Shown: positions 20,422-25,327 of the stretch, one piece after another
Position numbering within the stretch: the stretch's first letter is position 1
How the letters are laid out: each line of letters begins with the position of its first letter
Assembly: GCA_964408435.1 (NCBI GenBank)
Contig: CAYOZL010000004.1
Location: 1,839 to 65,838, forward strand
DNA: 64,000 bases
From: an uncultured Bdellovibrionales bacterium
GTDB lineage: Bacteria > Bdellovibrionota_C > UBA2361 > SZUA-149 > CAYOZL01
Direction: 5' to 3'
Program-made: the position numbers and the translations under genes
Notes under the pieces: generated by a model
The model's input: only the letters and a program-made list of their open reading frames with translations
Database searches by the model: none
What the model was told of the DNA's origin: nothing

Positions 20422-21519
20422 TTAACTATCAGGCACTAAACATACTAATAGTTCAAATGCTCCAAACTTTAGCTTGTCTCCGTGCTCAACGGCTTCAACT
20501 TCTTCTGAAGATACAAAACTGCTTGAACTTTTTTTCATTACATAGGTACCTTGCTCACTCATTAAATCCTGAATTTGAAGACTACCTCTACTGATTTTCA
20601 ATAAACAATGAGGTGTTGAAATTGCTGAATCTGGTATAATTAAATCATTTTCTCTTAATTTCTGCTTAGCAACAAAGAACTTTCCTGTTCTTAATTCTAT
20701 AGAAAAGCCATTAGTGTCATTAGAATAACTCACCAACCAACCTACTAAAATACCTGGCGCTGAACTTTTCTTTTCAATAGTGCCCTTTCTTTCGACACTA
20801 CTTCTTTCTACATTATTTTTTTCAAAACTATCTTCTCTTTCAAAGTTTTCTTCTGAGCTCTTAAAATTATTTTCATTTGGCTTCTTCTTTCTTTTTCTTC
20901 GTCTTTTCTTACGTTTAGGCTCAGCTGGCGCATCCTCAGTATCATTACTTTGAATCTTATCCATTTCACTATCTTTAACTGCATCCTTAAAATTTCTTTC
21001 CTCAAAAGAATCTACTTTTTCATTCTTTTGATGCTCAGATTTAAAATTCAAAGATCTAGAAGATGGAGAATTATCATTATTGAAATTAGCAGTAGAGTCA
21101 TTAAAAGCAGATTCATTATTGCTAGTATCATTACTAGTTTCTTCGAAACTATTTTGTAACTCTCTATTTTGTTCTACTTTTTGTTCAAAGCTTTCTTGTC
21201 CTATACTATTTTGAATATCTGCTTCTTGATCAACATGCTCTTGAACAAAATTTTCTTGAGCAAAACTCTCCTGTTTAATCTCACTATCTATAGATTTTTC
21301 AAATCTTGGCTCTTCTTGTATAGCCTGCTCTTGGATAGGCTGAACTTGAGGTTTTTGAGGTTCTTCTACTACAGGAGGAGCTTCTTGTGCAGAACTACTA
21401 GAGTCCTCTTGAGATGAAAATTGATGACCACACATGCGACATCTTGTTGCTACAGCAGGAACTAAACTCCTACAACTTGGACATCTTACAAAAGTTAATT
21501 CAGTATCTTCACTAGACAT
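20422..21519 (-). CDS. zinc-ribbon / disordered linker / C-terminal FHA-domain protein
   Basis: N-terminal CPSCRS-x10-CRMCGH, a long acidic Q/E/N-rich region, the polybasic run KRKKRRRKRKKK, and a C-terminal FHA-like domain (GWLVSYSNDTNGFSIELRTGKFFV...STPHCLL...QGTYV...GDKLKFGAFELLV). It is a paralog of 35278-36345. Confidence 0.7.
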   Translation of the reverse strand: MSSEDTELTFVRCPSCRSLVPAVATRCRMCGHQFSSQEDSSSSAQEAPPVVEEPQKPQVQPIQEQAIQEEPRFEKSIDSEIKQESFAQENFVQEHVDQEADIQNSIGQESFEQKVEQNRELQNSFEETSNDTSNNESAFNDSTANFNNDNSPSSRSLNFKSEHQKNEKVDSFEERNFKDAVKDSEMDKIQSNDTEDAPAEPKRKKRRRKRKKKPNENNFKSSEENFEREDSFEKNNVERSSVERKGTIEKKSSAPGILVGWLVSYSNDTNGFSIELRTGKFFVAKQKLRENDLIIPDSAISTPHCLLKISRGSLQIQDLMSEQGTYVMKKSSSSFVSSEEVEAVEHGDKLKFGAFELLVCLVPDS

Positions 21520-21545
21520 TTACGCCTCTCTTTTTTAAAAAATCT

Positions 21546-22850: not shown

Positions 22851-22852
22851 AT

Positions 22853-25327
22853 TTAAAAACCTTTCTTACTTCTTTCTTTCGTTACCCAATGATACTCATT
22901 GTAGACACTTATAACTTTTTGGTCTTTTTCATTATCATATGCTTTTACAATTCCTTGCAGAGCTTTAATTTCGTTTCTTCCCTTTAAGGATTTCACAGCT
23001 TCAATTCTAATCTCAGGACTCTCATTATAAAGTAAAGACATCAAATCACTACTAGGTAATAGTTCACCCATCCTATTAATTGCATTTTTAATTAAATAAG
23101 GATCATTAGTAGAGCTAATCACATTAAATAGCCCACCTTTAGCAAAAGGCATGAGACTATCTAATGCCTGATTTATCTCTTCTTCAGTAGCTACCTCAGA
23201 TAGTGAGATAACAGAAACAGGCCTAGCAAGTTTTGCCCGGTATTCCCAGAATCCATCTTTTATCCAATCTATAAAATTATCTGCAACTTTATTTTGTAAT
23301 GATTTGGCTGCTAAAAGCTCTAAGGATTCTCTTACTATCTTGTTATCCTTACTGTTTGCTGCTACTGCAAGGAGGATTTTTTCAGAATCTAGAGATTCCC
23401 ATTTGGCTAAATTATATAAATCAGTTGATTGTAGCTTATCTAATGCTCCAAGAACCAACTCTCTATTATAAATATTTGTGCTACTATCTCCCTTAATTAA
23501 AACTCCAAGAAATATCATTTGCTTAGGGCTTAGTAAGTTCCTAGAAATTAGTTCTTGAGCTATATTTTTCATAAAAGGAGAATTAGATTCCGCAGATTTA
23601 AGTAAAGACCAGTATAAATCTTGGTCACTAAATTTTTTAACTGCATCAGGCAAATCTTTATCTAAAAATATTTTAAATGCGGAATGAGACAACAAAAGCG
23701 CTCCTAGGCCTAAATCATCAAAGCTCTCATTAGGAGAAACTTGTTTTAAAACTTGCTTTAACGCTTTAATATATTCTTCTTTATCAATAGCCATAGCTGC
23801 GGCGAACCGAAGTGAGCTAATCTCATCTTTTTTAGATGCCTTCTTAAGTAAATCAATTTTAGACTGAACTGGCCTTGTTATCTCTAATGCTCTTAATATT
23901 AAACTATTTACAGGACTTACTTTATACTCTAGCCAGTCCTGTAATAAACCAGCAGTAGTATTCATATTCATTTTTTCTAAATTACTAGTAATTAATTTCT
24001 TTGCATAATTACTAAGTGCTTTATCTTCCACATTTCCTGACTCACTACCTTTAGCACTGCTTATAATTGCAGAATACAAATCCATGGAAACTTTAGGGTC
24101 ATTTTCATTTATCTCTGTTAAAAGCTCTTTCTTTTCTTCTAATTTTTTAGATTTTAAAAGTTTCAATATTAGCTCTCGACTGTCTTCTGATGCATACTCA
24201 GCAACTAGCGCTATTGGATTACTGACTGCTATATCTTTTTTGCCAGATTGCCGCTTACTTGCTCCATCTTTACTCTTATCAGCCCCAATAGATAAGAATA
24301 AAAAAGATGCTACTAATAAGCCCATCAAAATAGAAAAAGCCCACAAAGCTATTTTTTTAAAACTAGATTTATTCTCAGACCTTATATTTTCTTTAGAAGA
24401 TTTTTCCTGTATTTTGTTTTGTGGCTTAGCTATTTGCTTATTCCTAGTTTCTTTAATCTTTTGATCTTCTTCTAATTCAATTTTTTCTTCACTAGATGTT
24501 AAATTTTGATTTATTGCACTTCCACTTGATTTAGTTTGAGCTTCTTTAGTTTGAGTTTTTTGAACTGGACTATTTTCTTTAACTTCTTTAGGCAACTTAC
24601 CTGTATTAACAGTATGCTTAATTAAATTAGCAATCTCAGTAACACTTGAAAATCTTTCTTGAGGATTCTCATTCAAACATTTACTAACTACTGAATCTAA
24701 CCAAATAGGCACATCACTCCTAACAGAGCTCGCCTTGTCATTTTTACTAGGATAGTAATTAGTAAAAAGCTTATAAGCATAGACACCTAATCCATATATA
24801 TCAGTTTGCTTGTTTGCCTTAATAGAAGTACTTCTTTCAGGCGCTAAATAGTTTAAACTCCCTTGAGGAGGCATAGTGGCTGTCTGCTTTGCGGCAAAAT
24901 CATAGTCACCAAGAATCGAACCAAGTGTTACTTGTTTTTTCTCATTTAGCACAAATGTAGTGTCGTATATGTCACCGAGAATAATCTCTTGATCGTGAAG
25001 CTTTCTTACTAGCTCTAGTATTGAAATAAATCTATCTTCTAATTCCACTGGTATCCAAGAACTTCCTAACACTGGAGATAAATCTTGATACTTGACTAAT
25101 AGAGAAGGTGGATTAGATTTTTGAAATTTATAGAATTCTAGATCAACAGTAGTTCTAATTTTATTTAACCTAAGTTCTAATTCTTGAAATAAAGACTCAT
25201 CGATAGGATATCTAAGCTGGAAATTTAGATACTCATCTTGTTCTATTTGTTTCCTGAAAACGTCTGAACATCTAGTAGAAAAAATTAAATCTTGCTTTTT
25301 TATAATTTTAGAATCTTCTTCTTTCAT
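22853..25327 (-). CDS. degenerate Hanks-type kinase (predicted pseudokinase) - TM - HEAT/ARM-repeat protein
   Basis: Kinase C-lobe motifs are present (LNYLAPERS, DIYGLGVYAYKLFT, ERFSS). There is no GxGxxG, the VAIK Lys position reads NFQL, and HRDLKPEN reads LGDIYDTT. One TM (ALWAFSILMGLLVASFLFLSIG) is followed by ~470 aa of helical repeats ending in a HEAT-like SPEIRIEAVKSLKG. Confidence 0.65.
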   Translation of the reverse strand: MKEEDSKIIKKQDLIFSTRCSDVFRKQIEQDEYLNFQLRYPIDESLFQELELRLNKIRTTVDLEFYKFQKSNPPSLLVKYQDLSPVLGSSWIPVELEDRFISILELVRKLHDQEIILGDIYDTTFVLNEKKQVTLGSILGDYDFAAKQTATMPPQGSLNYLAPERSTSIKANKQTDIYGLGVYAYKLFTNYYPSKNDKASSVRSDVPIWLDSVVSKCLNENPQERFSSVTEIANLIKHTVNTGKLPKEVKENSPVQKTQTKEAQTKSSGSAINQNLTSSEEKIELEEDQKIKETRNKQIAKPQNKIQEKSSKENIRSENKSSFKKIALWAFSILMGLLVASFLFLSIGADKSKDGASKRQSGKKDIAVSNPIALVAEYASEDSRELILKLLKSKKLEEKKELLTEINENDPKVSMDLYSAIISSAKGSESGNVEDKALSNYAKKLITSNLEKMNMNTTAGLLQDWLEYKVSPVNSLILRALEITRPVQSKIDLLKKASKKDEISSLRFAAAMAIDKEEYIKALKQVLKQVSPNESFDDLGLGALLLSHSAFKIFLDKDLPDAVKKFSDQDLYWSLLKSAESNSPFMKNIAQELISRNLLSPKQMIFLGVLIKGDSSTNIYNRELVLGALDKLQSTDLYNLAKWESLDSEKILLAVAANSKDNKIVRESLELLAAKSLQNKVADNFIDWIKDGFWEYRAKLARPVSVISLSEVATEEEINQALDSLMPFAKGGLFNVISSTNDPYLIKNAINRMGELLPSSDLMSLLYNESPEIRIEAVKSLKGRNEIKALQGIVKAYDNEKDQKVISVYNEYHWVTKERSKKGF

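Follow-up and report, generated by a model that had tools for sequence, protein, structure and literature searches.

The three genes that lie between sctV and sctJ in a secretion locus of an uncultured Bdellovibrionales bacterium (positions 20422-25327, minus strand) raise the question of whether they were inserted there, whether they replace the cytoplasmic part of SctD or whether they belong to the apparatus in another way. In the window, which is the whole stretch of 64,000 nucleotides that was analysed, the three open reading frames lie at the coordinates of the initial annotation, encode proteins of 824, 434 and 365 aa on the minus strand and are spaced by 2 nt and 26 nt, as given there. 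No terminator-like site was found between sctV and sctJ, and co-transcription of the three genes is plausible. At least 409 homologues of the 434-aa protein and 195 clusters (50% identity) of the 824-aa protein were detected, and so these are not chance open reading frames. The genes, encoding a pseudokinase, a tail-anchored FHA protein and a zinc ribbon-FHA (Zn-FHA) protein, are confirmed as real and conserved.

A Tad pilus joined to a type III secretion core

The three genes are part of a so far undescribed locus of Bdellovibrio-like bacteria, in which a Tad pilus is joined to a stripped-down type III secretion core:

36369-37352, minus: PP2C Ser/Thr phosphatase with C-terminal TM anchor (Pfam PP2C, 2.6e-16); same position in L088 and L089
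35278-36345, minus: 355-aa protein with N-terminal SRARNRTVM, disordered linker and C-terminal FHA-like domain
33999-35180, minus: active Hanks-type Ser/Thr kinase (STK) with C-terminal TM anchor (Pfam Pkinase, 8e-60, full length)
32641-33885, minus: TadZ/CpaE-like protein, ParA/MinD-type ATPase (Pfam AAA_31, residues 135-302)
32276-32461, minus: Flp-type prepilin (ORF with motif G/ATMVEYALMVALIAV); Flp_Fap genes at the same place in L088 and L089
31157-32092, minus: RcpC/CpaB (Pfam RcpC, 3.9e-21)
29687-31111, minus: TadA/CpaF ATPase (NCBIfam TadA-family ATPase, 9.6e-63)
28683-29690, minus: TadB, Tad pilus gene
27727-28629, minus: TadC, Tad pilus gene
25396-27573, minus: SctV/FlhA-family export gate protein (Pfam FHIPEP, 9e-127)
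22853-25327, minus: 824 aa; pseudokinase (~1-260), linker, TM helix (~326-348), ARM/HEAT-like solenoid (~370-811)
21546-22850, minus: 434 aa, TTG start; tail-anchored protein with three beta domains
20422-21519, minus: 365 aa; zinc ribbon (CPSC...CRMC), acidic disordered linker, C-terminal FHA domain
19427-20266, minus: SctJ-type inner-membrane ring lipoprotein with C-terminal TM and short cytoplasmic tail (Pfam YscJ_FliF, 1.8e-12)
19200-19427, minus: conserved 75-aa protein of no recognisable family
18718-19188, minus: SctO/FliJ-like coiled-coil protein
17726-18721, minus: SctQ-like protein
16939-17565, minus: SctR
16685-16936, minus: SctS
16072-16695, minus: SctT
15440-16075, minus: SctU, short, TM domain only (matches model positions 2-223 of 335)
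15133-15447, minus: conserved 104-aa protein, kept in L001, L003, L084 and L085
14756-15160, minus: LcrH/SycD-like TPR chaperone, kept in L001, L003, L084 and L085

The head of the locus carries the active Hanks kinase and the PP2C phosphatase, both conserved there and both with C-terminal inner-membrane anchors, that of PP2C being a hydrophobic tail. The kinase (33999-35180), which had already been recognised as active and nearby, has every catalytic motif and keeps its position in L088 and L089; like PP2C, it is a conserved member of the same locus. Between them lies the 355-aa protein, a paralogue of the 365-aa Zn-FHA protein by BLASTP (E 1e-15) and a weak match to Pfam FHA (E 0.0048), whose position and N-terminal motif are kept in L088 and L089. 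The TadZ/CpaE-like protein shows 78% identity to its L088 orthologue, and its N-terminal region of about 130 residues, which had no Pfam match, is receiver-like by eye only. A terminator-like hairpin (32197-32223) follows the prepilin gene, and T2SSF genes are found at the same places in L001, L084, L088 and L089. In the case of the export gate protein, the NCBIfam models for SctV (385.7 bits) and FlhA (375.5 bits) both scored below their cut-offs, whereas the SctJ-type lipoprotein scored 94.5 bits with the SctJ model and 26.7 bits with FliF. The 75-aa protein has orthologues in 5 loci with 20 invariant columns and no match in PDB or Pfam. The SctO/FliJ-like protein of the window itself gave no Pfam match, and its positional orthologue in L004 matched Pfam FliJ (8.1e-11) and YscO-like (8.4e-5); the chaperone matched NCBIfam LcrH_SycD at 3.8e-12, below cut-off.

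Related loci (L001-L004, L006, L084, L085 and L088-L091) were compared on MAG contigs labelled Bdellovibrionota, Bdellovibrionales or Oligoflexia, labels which suggest that the host organism is a predator. The window, L001/L002, L003, L004, L006 (partial) and L084 share one gene order, that is, PP2C, FHA, active STK, TadZ, Flp, RcpC, TadABC, SctV, pseudokinase, three-domain FHA, Zn-FHA, SctJ, SctO-like, SctQ, SctRSTU and LcrH-like chaperone, at GC contents of 32-53%, and the part from PP2C to the pseudokinase is also present in L088 and L089. Because this order is kept in distantly related genomes, the three genes are fixed members of a conserved locus, and the description of them as inserted between sctV and sctJ was wrong. 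In a split variant (L085, L090, L091), the three-domain FHA gene lies beside sctJ with no pseudokinase, SctV or Tad genes nearby, so that, as far as gene order goes, the two halves need not be physically coupled. The three-domain FHA gene always accompanies sctJ, split loci included; the Zn-FHA gene is missing from L091. Neither the window nor any of the related loci (about eight in the case of SctD) was found to contain SctD, SctN, secretin or needle genes, and SctI and SctL are also absent from the locus. Identity to L088 amounts to 53-62% for STK, PP2C and the 355-aa FHA protein and to 21-37% for most type III-like proteins (SctR, S, U, V, J, O and Q, the pseudokinase and the three-domain FHA protein), with the pseudokinase and the three-domain FHA protein diverging at the type III rate (32-37%).

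The pseudokinase and the FHA proteins

When the 824-aa protein was aligned with the active kinase of the window, LGDIYDTT was found in place of HRDLKPEN, the glycine loop and the VAIK lysine were lost and the APE and subdomain IX/XI residues were kept, in agreement with the initial annotation; DFG was lost as well. Pfam Pkinase matches only residues 99-229 (model positions 103-254; 42.2 bits, cut-off 31.7). The same ATP-site residues are replaced across 124 family members, so that the pseudokinase assignment holds for the whole family: the VAIK Lys is Trp in 107, the alphaC Glu is Arg in 112, the catalytic-loop Asn is Ser in 110, the DFG Asp is Gly, Ser or Ala, the catalytic-loop Lys is also replaced and the glycine-loop glycines are lost. 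The APE motif, the subdomain IX Asp and the subdomain XI Arg are kept, as is the HRD aspartate in 118 of the 124; only about half of the members have the candidate Thr in the activation loop. As judged from its sequence, the 824-aa protein cannot be a conventional kinase.

The architecture proposed earlier, a kinase C-lobe followed by a TM helix and helical repeats, was borne out: the TM helix lies at ~326-348, and about 475 residues of predicted all-helical repeats follow it. Besides the kinase C-lobe, the protein retains a strongly conserved helical-repeat domain that is predicted to be extracytoplasmic. The family is coherent (the 195 clusters at E<1e-30, mostly 780-900 aa), its members match best in the C-terminal domain, and its gene stays directly after sctV. 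With one TM helix and no signal peptide, the protein probably has its solenoid in the periplasm. As the structure model of this protein is poor (pLDDT 54.7), the ARM/HEAT assignment rests on one Pfam match (HEAT_2, residues 733-805) and on Foldseek matches of low significance (E at least 5e-3).

The 434-aa protein consists of a non-canonical N-terminal domain (1-95), two FHA domains (~119-210 and ~235-332; Pfam FHA, 99.8 bits) and a long helix containing the TM segment (383-433), and its TTG start was validated by homologues that all begin with MFA[IL]EI. The TM helix ends about 8 residues from the C-terminus, as had been noted, and in 116 of 119 members the protein ends no more than 14 residues after it, so the tail anchor, a feature shared with STK and PP2C, is family-wide; a periplasmic domain was found in no member. 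In both FHA domains the phosphothreonine-binding residues (GR, S..H and S.NG) are invariant in the 119 sequences. The AF2 model (pLDDT 86.8) shows three beta domains and a terminal helix, and Foldseek matched phosphopeptide-binding FHA domains; the FHA domains of chlamydial CT664 (TM 0.85) and of EssC (5fwh) are also among its matches. The N-terminal domain, a compact beta domain in which the phosphothreonine-binding residues are missing, is better conserved than any other part of the protein.

In the case of the 365-aa protein, Pfam FHA scored 33.6 bits and the zinc ribbon UPF0547 27.3 bits, just under cut-off, and six loci share the N-terminal motif TELTF[VIM]RCPSCRSL almost without variation. 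The same combination of zinc ribbon, low-complexity linker and FHA domain is found in ArnA of Sulfolobus, which, together with kinases and phosphatases, controls a machine of the type IV-filament class. However, ArnA is archaeal and a repressor of archaellum expression, and its match to the 365-aa protein (PDB 5a8i, E 9e-4) supports homology of the FHA domain; the 434-aa protein matches the same structure with E 3.8e-6.

The N-terminal domain and known systems

Cytoplasmic domains of SctD are degenerate FHA folds, and the N-terminal domain of the 434-aa protein had been labelled FHA-like and the FHA-plus-TM architecture of the protein likened to that of SctD/CdsD. The domain architectures of the three proteins stood up except for this label, the only ground for which is a predicted beta-sandwich. 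The profile of the domain found no match in PDB or Pfam, and profile-profile probabilities were 0.1% with the YscD N-domain and at most 1.1% with the two FHA domains of the same protein. All of the best 50 Foldseek matches of the 434-aa model were canonical FHA domains, with YscD, PrgH and MxiG absent, and Pfam Yop-YscD_cpl matched the canonical FHA domains with lower scores than FHA. Sequence, profile and Foldseek comparison showed no similarity to SctD cytoplasmic domains, and the proposal that the protein is an SctD surrogate is not backed by homology. A functional surrogate is compatible with the absence of SctD from the window and related loci, the association of the FHA gene with sctJ and the family-wide tail anchor. 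The surrogate idea is neither supported nor excluded, given that no sequence similarity of the N-terminal domain to SctD or FHA was detectable and that no member has a periplasmic domain.

Among known systems, a close likeness is to the pair formed in Myxococcus xanthus by the Tad-like Kil system and the needle-less T3SS* (mxan_2434-2464), which also combines a Tad-type pilus with a type III core devoid of secretin, needle and translocon (PMC10433427, PMC12075869, PMC8460266) and shares LcrH-like chaperones, abundant FHA proteins and a probably predatory lineage. Kil clusters are enriched in FHA proteins, and Kil and T3SS* co-localise (PMC8460266, PMC12075869, PMC12428579), their co-occurrence being apparently restricted to Cystobacterineae according to a review. 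However, they occupy separate clusters in Myxococcus and one locus here; T3SS* has SctD, SctI, SctN and SctL, none of which is in the present locus, and its components as reviewed include neither a pseudokinase-TM-solenoid protein nor a tail-anchored three-domain FHA protein. SctU here also lacks the C-terminal domain.

For the protein pair itself, T7SSb offers a parallel in EssB/YukC, a secretion-system scaffold in which a pseudokinase on the cytoplasmic side is joined through a single TM helix to an extracytoplasmic domain. Its partner, EssC/YukB, carries two FHA domains, and direct binding of the YukC pseudokinase domain to those of YukB has been shown (PMC9600267). That system is a different one from a monoderm host, EssB gave no sequence match in the PDB search, and EssC FHA domains have lost the phosphothreonine-binding residues and bind independently of phosphorylation, whereas the FHA domains here keep these residues without exception and share their locus with a kinase and a phosphatase. 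In the threonine phosphorylation pathway of the T6SS (PpkA/PppA/Fha1, or Fha with TssL), the secretion-system locus likewise encodes a Hanks kinase, a PP2C and an FHA reader, which are reported to gate assembly after transcription (PMC3953482, PMC8460266); the apparatus differs, that pathway is not known to include a pseudokinase partner or a tail-anchored multi-FHA protein, and the present reader has an extra domain in addition to its two FHA domains. Chlamydial CdsD (SctD) carries two genuine N-terminal FHA domains and is phosphorylated by the Ser/Thr kinase PknD, which ties both to a type III basal body (PMC2765968), but its TM and periplasmic ring part are in the same polypeptide, and PknD is active whereas the kinase-like neighbour here is dead.

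A putative phosphothreonine switch and its alternatives

The reading that we favour, with moderate confidence, is that the three gene products supply the reader and scaffold half of a phosphothreonine switch which is tethered to the membrane and serves to control or couple a Kil/T3SS*-like predation apparatus. They would be built-in parts of a composite envelope machine, a Tad (Flp) platform with a needle-less and secretin-less type III core, resembling the pair used by Myxococcus in prey killing. STK as writer and PP2C as eraser would act on phosphothreonines in disordered or loop segments, candidates being the linkers of the Zn-FHA protein and its paralogue, the conserved N-terminal motif RNRTVM and, in the pseudokinase, the Thr of the activation loop. 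These marks would be read by the tail-anchored FHA protein, which would dock on the apparatus through its non-canonical N-terminal domain, most likely on SctQ, SctJ or SctV, and so recruit or open the export gate. The pseudokinase may be a transmembrane scaffold or sensor, its periplasmic solenoid binding the RcpC ring, the pilus or an envelope signal and its cytoplasmic lobe the active kinase or FHA domains, by analogy with EssB/YukC and the FHA domains of EssC/YukB. Such an arrangement might partially stand in for the missing SctD cytoplasmic domain, by analogy and not by descent.

Rather unlikely, in our estimate, is a split SctD in which the FHA protein forms the cytoplasmic ring, the pseudokinase solenoid forms the periplasmic ring around SctJ and phosphorylation is minor or absent. 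The lack of an SctD gene in the window and about eight related loci, the position of the genes immediately upstream of sctJ with its constant FHA companion, the compact and conserved N-terminal domain without phosphothreonine-binding residues (SctD cytoplasmic domains being degenerate FHA folds) and the genuine FHA domains of chlamydial SctD, with the CT664 match, all fit this view. However, an SctD may be encoded elsewhere in the genome, the N-terminal domain shows no detectable similarity to the YscD N-domain or to any PDB or Pfam entry, no FHA family member has a periplasmic domain, the putative periplasmic part is an all-helical solenoid instead of alpha/beta ring-building motifs, and the strictly conserved phosphothreonine pockets with a dedicated STK and PP2C argue that phospho-signalling is central. 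A module that regulates the Tad/Flp pilus alone (extension, retraction or contact sensing), with the sctV-sctJ position reflecting a fusion of gene sets, is improbable. Kil/Tad-like predation clusters characteristically contain FHA proteins (PMC8460266), contact sensing has been proposed for Kil FHA proteins, and STK, PP2C and the 355-aa FHA protein lie at the Tad end and evolve at the Tad rate; but the split variant retains the three-domain FHA protein with sctJ-sctU and not with Tad genes, the pseudokinase keeps its place after sctV, and both proteins evolve at the type III rate. We give very little credence to the 824-aa protein being an atypical but active kinase, comparable to WNK or other kinases in which the lysine is displaced, that would itself write the marks read by the FHA proteins. 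Retention of the HRD aspartate fits this view, as does the activity or nucleotide binding of some kinases that lack the VAIK lysine (bioRxiv 10.1101/2025.01.12.632604), but the other ATP-site residues are consistently replaced family-wide, Pfam matches the C-lobe only, and the locus has a conserved canonical STK of its own.

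Organization and conservation of the locus

Genes on the reverse strand form an unbroken run from ~37.3 kb down to 14.7 kb, and the three ORFs at 20422-25327 described in the initial annotation are present where it had placed them. They are spaced by 2 nt and 26 nt, their 5' neighbour (-) encodes SctV (Pfam FHIPEP, 9e-127) and their 3' neighbour (-) a SctJ-type lipoprotein, and no terminator-like site was found between sctV and sctJ in the window. The genes most relevant here are:

36369-37352 (-): PP2C
35278-36345 (-): 355-aa FHA protein
33999-35180 (-): active STK
22853-25327 (-): 824-aa pseudokinase-solenoid protein
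21546-22850 (-): 434-aa 3-domain FHA protein
20422-21519 (-): 365-aa zinc ribbon-FHA (Zn-FHA) protein
19200-19427 (-): 75-aa ORF
15440-16075 (-): short SctU

The three genes had been thought to be inserted between sctV and sctJ, a view contradicted by related MAG contigs, in which the same order recurs. The genes for RcpC, TadA, TadB, TadC, SctV, the pseudokinase, the 3-domain FHA protein, the Zn-FHA protein and SctJ are followed by those for a protein of ~75 aa, a SctO/FliJ-like protein, SctQ, SctR, SctS, SctT and a short SctU, and then by those for a protein of ~95 aa, an LcrH-like TPR protein and sigma factors. This full order is found in the contigs L001, L002, L003, L004 (53% GC), L006 (partial) and L084, a 1.87-Mb Bdellovibrionota contig. 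With TadZ as anchor, conservation of PP2C, FHA protein, STK, TadZ, Flp, RcpC, TadABC, SctV and pseudokinase was detected in L088 (Bdellovibrionota) and L089 (Oligoflexia), the latter covering only PP2C through pseudokinase. As STK and PP2C are conserved at the locus head in both, the two enzymes belong to the system; a C-terminal membrane anchor is common to STK, PP2C and the 3-domain FHA protein.

A split variant occurs in the loci L085, L090 and L091, which start with genes for a small FHA protein, a response regulator and the 3-domain FHA protein. In L085 and L091 these are followed by sctJ to sctU and the chaperone gene, and in L090 the contig edge lies directly after the 3-domain FHA gene. 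Near these three loci no SctV, pseudokinase or Tad genes were found, and thus the gene for the 3-domain FHA protein is tied to sctJ and that for the pseudokinase to sctV.

Comparison with L084 and L088 showed 50-78% identity for the Tad and kinase-phosphatase genes (TadZ 78%, TadA 74%, the other Tad, STK and PP2C proteins 50-62%) and 21-37% for most type III-like genes (SctR, S, U, V, J, O, Q, pseudokinase and 3-domain FHA protein), with values of 30% for SctV, 28% for SctJ, 23% for SctQ and 21% for SctO. The 75-aa protein, the TPR chaperone and the FHA domain of the Zn-FHA protein showed 46-54% identity. The locus is therefore two-speed, 27727-37352 being far more conserved than 14756-27573. 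The type III export gate is usually highly conserved, whereas this locus shows the reverse.

With respect to the Tad pilus, Flp pilin, TadA/CpaF, TadB, TadC, RcpC/CpaB and TadZ/CpaE are all encoded in the window, and no secretin or prepilin peptidase was found within these 64 kb. The N-terminal FHA domain typical of KilF was sought in TadA, but no FHA motif was seen by eye in the first ~100 residues, and NCBIfam matches cover the ATPase core only.

In the case of the type III-like set, the injectisome core SctJ, Q, R, S, T, U and V is present in the window, and secretin, SctD, SctN and needle were found neither there nor in the related loci, so that the set falls short of a full non-flagellar type III system in the sequences covered. 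An SctN/FliI ATPase signature, SctL and a prepilin peptidase were likewise not found in the window or in L001, L003, L004, L084, L085, L088 and L089. A SctO/FliJ-like stalk protein is present despite the lack of an SctN/FliI signature, and the locus encodes no ATPases other than TadA/CpaF and a TadZ-like ParA/MinD protein. SctV is equidistant from the NCBIfam models for SctV (386 bits) and FlhA (376 bits), both scores being below cut-off, and SctJ and the chaperone are nearer to the injectisome side. SctU is short (211-261 aa; also L084 18039-18824, L085 16571-17233, L003 12448-13155), its match to the FlhB/YscU model ends at position 223 of 335, and the cytoplasmic autocleaving (NPTH) C-terminal domain is lacking family-wide. 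Encoded after SctU is a conserved protein of ~85-104 aa (window 15133-15447), which belongs to no recognisable family. Between sctJ and the SctO-like gene, the 75-aa ORF overlaps the sctJ stop by 1 base and has counterparts in five other loci, with which it shares 20 invariant alignment columns; by eye it had resembled an N-terminal FliG-like domain, for which no PDB or Pfam match was obtained, and this assignment was abandoned.

The pseudokinase and the FHA proteins

The 824-aa protein matches Pkinase (PF00069) with its C-lobe only (residues 99-229; 42.2 bits, gathering cut-off 31.7) and HEAT_2 at residues 733-805. When it was aligned together with five homologues to the active kinase of the window (33999-35180; Pkinase 8e-60), the glycine loop, the VAIK Lys, the alphaC Glu, the catalytic-loop Lys and Asn and the DFG motif were found to be gone in all six, and APE, the subdomain IX Asp and the subdomain XI Arg were retained. 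The same holds across 124 family members:

Residues of the pseudokinase family (n=124)
Loop glycines: absent
VAIK Lys: replaced by Trp in 107/124
alphaC Glu: replaced by Arg in 112/124
HRD: [C/L]-G-D, with Asp retained, in 118/124
Catalytic-loop Asn: replaced by Ser in 110/124
DFG Asp: replaced by Gly, Ser or Ala in most members
APE Pro: retained in 122/124
Subdomain IX Asp: retained in 124/124
Subdomain XI Arg: retained in 123/124

By its PF00069 score and C-lobe motifs the protein has a protein kinase-like fold, and the family does not qualify as active Hanks-type Ser/Thr kinases, keeping only the HRD Asp of the catalytic residues tested. The suspicion that the 824-aa protein is catalytically dead is thereby borne out at the level of residues, and judged from these alignments the family truly consists of pseudokinases and is an old one. 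[quoted passage not shown]

When 1.84 billion representatives were searched in full with HMMER, 195 pseudokinase clusters were obtained at E<1e-30, most of them of 780-900 aa and with the best match in the C-terminal region, whereas a word-indexed search with the single sequence gave only 2 matches. No matches to the pseudokinase alignment came from the genome or JGI metagenome collections, and the family was found via SctV and protein databases instead. The AF2 model, obtained from a 3-sequence alignment, is poor (pLDDT 54.7), places a TM helix at 321-348 and helical repeats at 371-811, and gave only weak, generic ARM/HEAT matches with Foldseek. Because the protein has a single TM helix and no signal peptide, its solenoid is predicted to lie in the periplasm.

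The 434-aa protein contains two canonical FHA domains (Pfam, 99.8 bits), as had been annotated, and domains 2 and 3 have the features of phosphothreonine-binding FHA domains (PF00498). In an alignment of 119 sequences, Gly-Arg, Ser..His and Ser.Asn-Gly are invariant in both domains, and therefore the phosphothreonine pockets are under selection. The family comprises at least 409 matches at E<1e-5, with lengths of 392-631 aa among 120 matches listed, and the few homologues with a named source are from MAGs labelled Bdellovibrionales, Bdellovibrionota, Oligoflexia, SAR324, Deltaproteobacteria or Pseudomonadota. A good AF2 model (pLDDT 86.8) shows beta domains at 1-85, 119-210 and 235-332 and a long terminal helix, and its best 50 Foldseek matches are all canonical FHA domains, including FhaA, GarA, Rad53, ArnA, EssC and chlamydial CT664; phosphopeptide-bound structures are among the matches. 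The protein ends ~8 residues beyond its TM helix, this distance is at most 14 residues in 116 of the 119 family members, and none of the 119 has a periplasmic domain. Its most conserved part is the N-terminal domain.

In the 365-aa protein, Pfam recovers both the annotated zinc ribbon and the FHA domain, in which Ser and His are retained and Arg and Asn only in part; the zinc-ribbon segment is nearly invariant in six loci, and Sulfolobus ArnA has the same architecture. The protein is a paralogue of the upstream 355-aa FHA protein. The latter has a conserved N-terminal SRARNRTVM[FL] motif, also present in L088 (7143-8114) and L089 (7503-8453), then a long disordered linker and, at the C-terminus, an FHA domain, a layout that matches the GarA/OdhI phospho-switch. 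The Thr of this motif has a hydrophobic residue at +3 and may be a site of phosphorylation and FHA binding.

Relation to SctD and to known secretion systems

The initial annotation also proposed that the inserted proteins might replace the cytoplasmic part of SctD, and of this interpretation as a whole only a part stands, the underlying observation itself being confirmed. In its favour, phmmer found no SctD in the window or in the related loci and the 3-domain FHA gene is tightly linked to sctJ. Against it, homology support is lacking and the periplasmic ring part is missing, as the 434-aa protein has no periplasmic domain and the part of the 824-aa protein beyond its TM helix is all-helical. 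The N-terminal domain of the 434-aa protein, suggested to be FHA-like and comparable to that of YscD, showed no similarity to FHA or SctD at the sequence or profile level: no match was obtained by PDB profile search or Pfam, and hhalign probabilities did not exceed 1.1% against the FHA domains of the same protein and were 0.1% against the YscD N-domain from pYVe8081. AF2 predicts a beta domain here, and the negative profile tests are compatible with a similarity of fold. Yop-YscD_cpl matches in Pfam fall on the same residues as FHA with lower scores and, to judge from this, are clan cross-matches and no evidence for SctD. The idea of a SctD surrogate survives as a functional analogy only. In a bolder version, which we regard as unlikely, the pseudokinase-solenoid and the tail-anchored FHA protein would replace SctD as a phosphorylation-gated adaptor ring that forms a physical link between the Tad pilus platform and a minimal type III export gate, which may also work without an ATPase of its own, in one hybrid machine. 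If true, this would be a hard-wired form, in Bdellovibrio-like predators, of the Kil/T3SS* 'large complex' that has so far been a hypothesis in Myxococcus.

The best-supported reading is that the module is a membrane-tethered phosphothreonine switch and scaffold integral to a composite Tad/type III-like apparatus. The STK would act as writer and PP2C as eraser, the 3-domain FHA protein and the Zn-FHA/FHA paralogues as readers, and the pseudokinase-solenoid protein as transmembrane scaffold or sensor. For this switch we infer phosphorylation targets, partners of the N-terminal domain and of the solenoid, and a role in predation.

Prey killing by Myxococcus xanthus employs a Tad-like Kil pilus and a needle-less T3SS*, which co-localise and may form one complex; kil clusters encode many FHA proteins, and T3SS*, as given in reviews, has no secretin, needle or translocon and keeps SctD, SctI, SctN and SctL (PMC8460266, PMC10433427, PMC12075869). 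The locus resembles T3SS* in the absence of outer components and in the association with Tad genes but differs from it in that SctD, SctN and SctL were not found. A current (2025) review describes co-occurrence of Kil and T3SS* as apparently restricted to Cystobacterineae, one myxobacterial suborder, and terms their association 'hypothetical' (PMC12428579). Phosphorylation is not needed for the FHA domains of YukB/EssC to be bound by YukC/EssB, the membrane pseudokinase of T7SSb (PMC9600267). The architecture of the 824-aa protein is analogous, but a PDB sequence search with it returned no EssB or YukC chain, and the likeness would be one of functional analogy only. In Chlamydia, an FHA-bearing SctD is phosphorylated by PknD (PMC2765968). 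In the literature searched, neither a Bdellovibrionota locus with Tad and type III-like genes in fused form nor a pseudokinase and FHA pair of this type was described.

We would describe the locus as a form of the known pairing of a needle-less type III system with a Tad predation pilus, here fused into a single locus, without SctD and with a novel pseudokinase/FHA module. It bears on how Tad-like Kil pili and needle-less T3SS* cooperate in contact-dependent predation: at 14756-37352 (-) Tad and type III-like sets are fused as one conserved unit in a phylum different from that of Myxococcus, and the module of kinase, phosphatase, FHA proteins and pseudokinase is located exactly at the Tad/type III junction, supplying concrete candidates for coupling or trigger proteins. 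The locus further provides a candidate natural type III core running without a recognisable SctD and, after T7SSb, a candidate second secretion machine in which a membrane pseudokinase and FHA domains are partners. Two large families of uncharacterised proteins are also defined, with at least 195 (pseudokinase) and at least 409 (3-domain FHA) clusters.

Transcriptional features and other genes in the window

Genes for two divergent sigma-70-like proteins (12630-13433 (-) and 13603-14460 (+)) lie at the locus end, together with a gene for a small 98-aa Ser/Thr- and Lys-rich protein (14457-14753 (+)), and sigma-70 region 4 genes are present at the same locus end in L001, L084, L085 and L091, suggesting that transcription of the locus is under dedicated control. 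A strong terminator-like hairpin of 12 pairs followed by a T run (32197-32223 (-)) is situated directly after the Flp gene and upstream of rcpC, suggesting attenuation with pilin transcript in excess over that of the machinery genes. The GC content is 0.34-0.37 across 28-34 kb and ~0.31 in the sct part.

Outside the locus, translations inspected by eye indicate that 54838-62499 resembles an exopolysaccharide export cluster:

55401-56276: BY-kinase-like ATPase
56286-57839: Wzz/GumC-like chain-length protein
57998-60250: 750-aa TPR lipoprotein
60288-60881: Wza-like protein

At 62489-63784, a further fragment of a kinase C-lobe was seen by eye together with an ORF that contains a TM segment.
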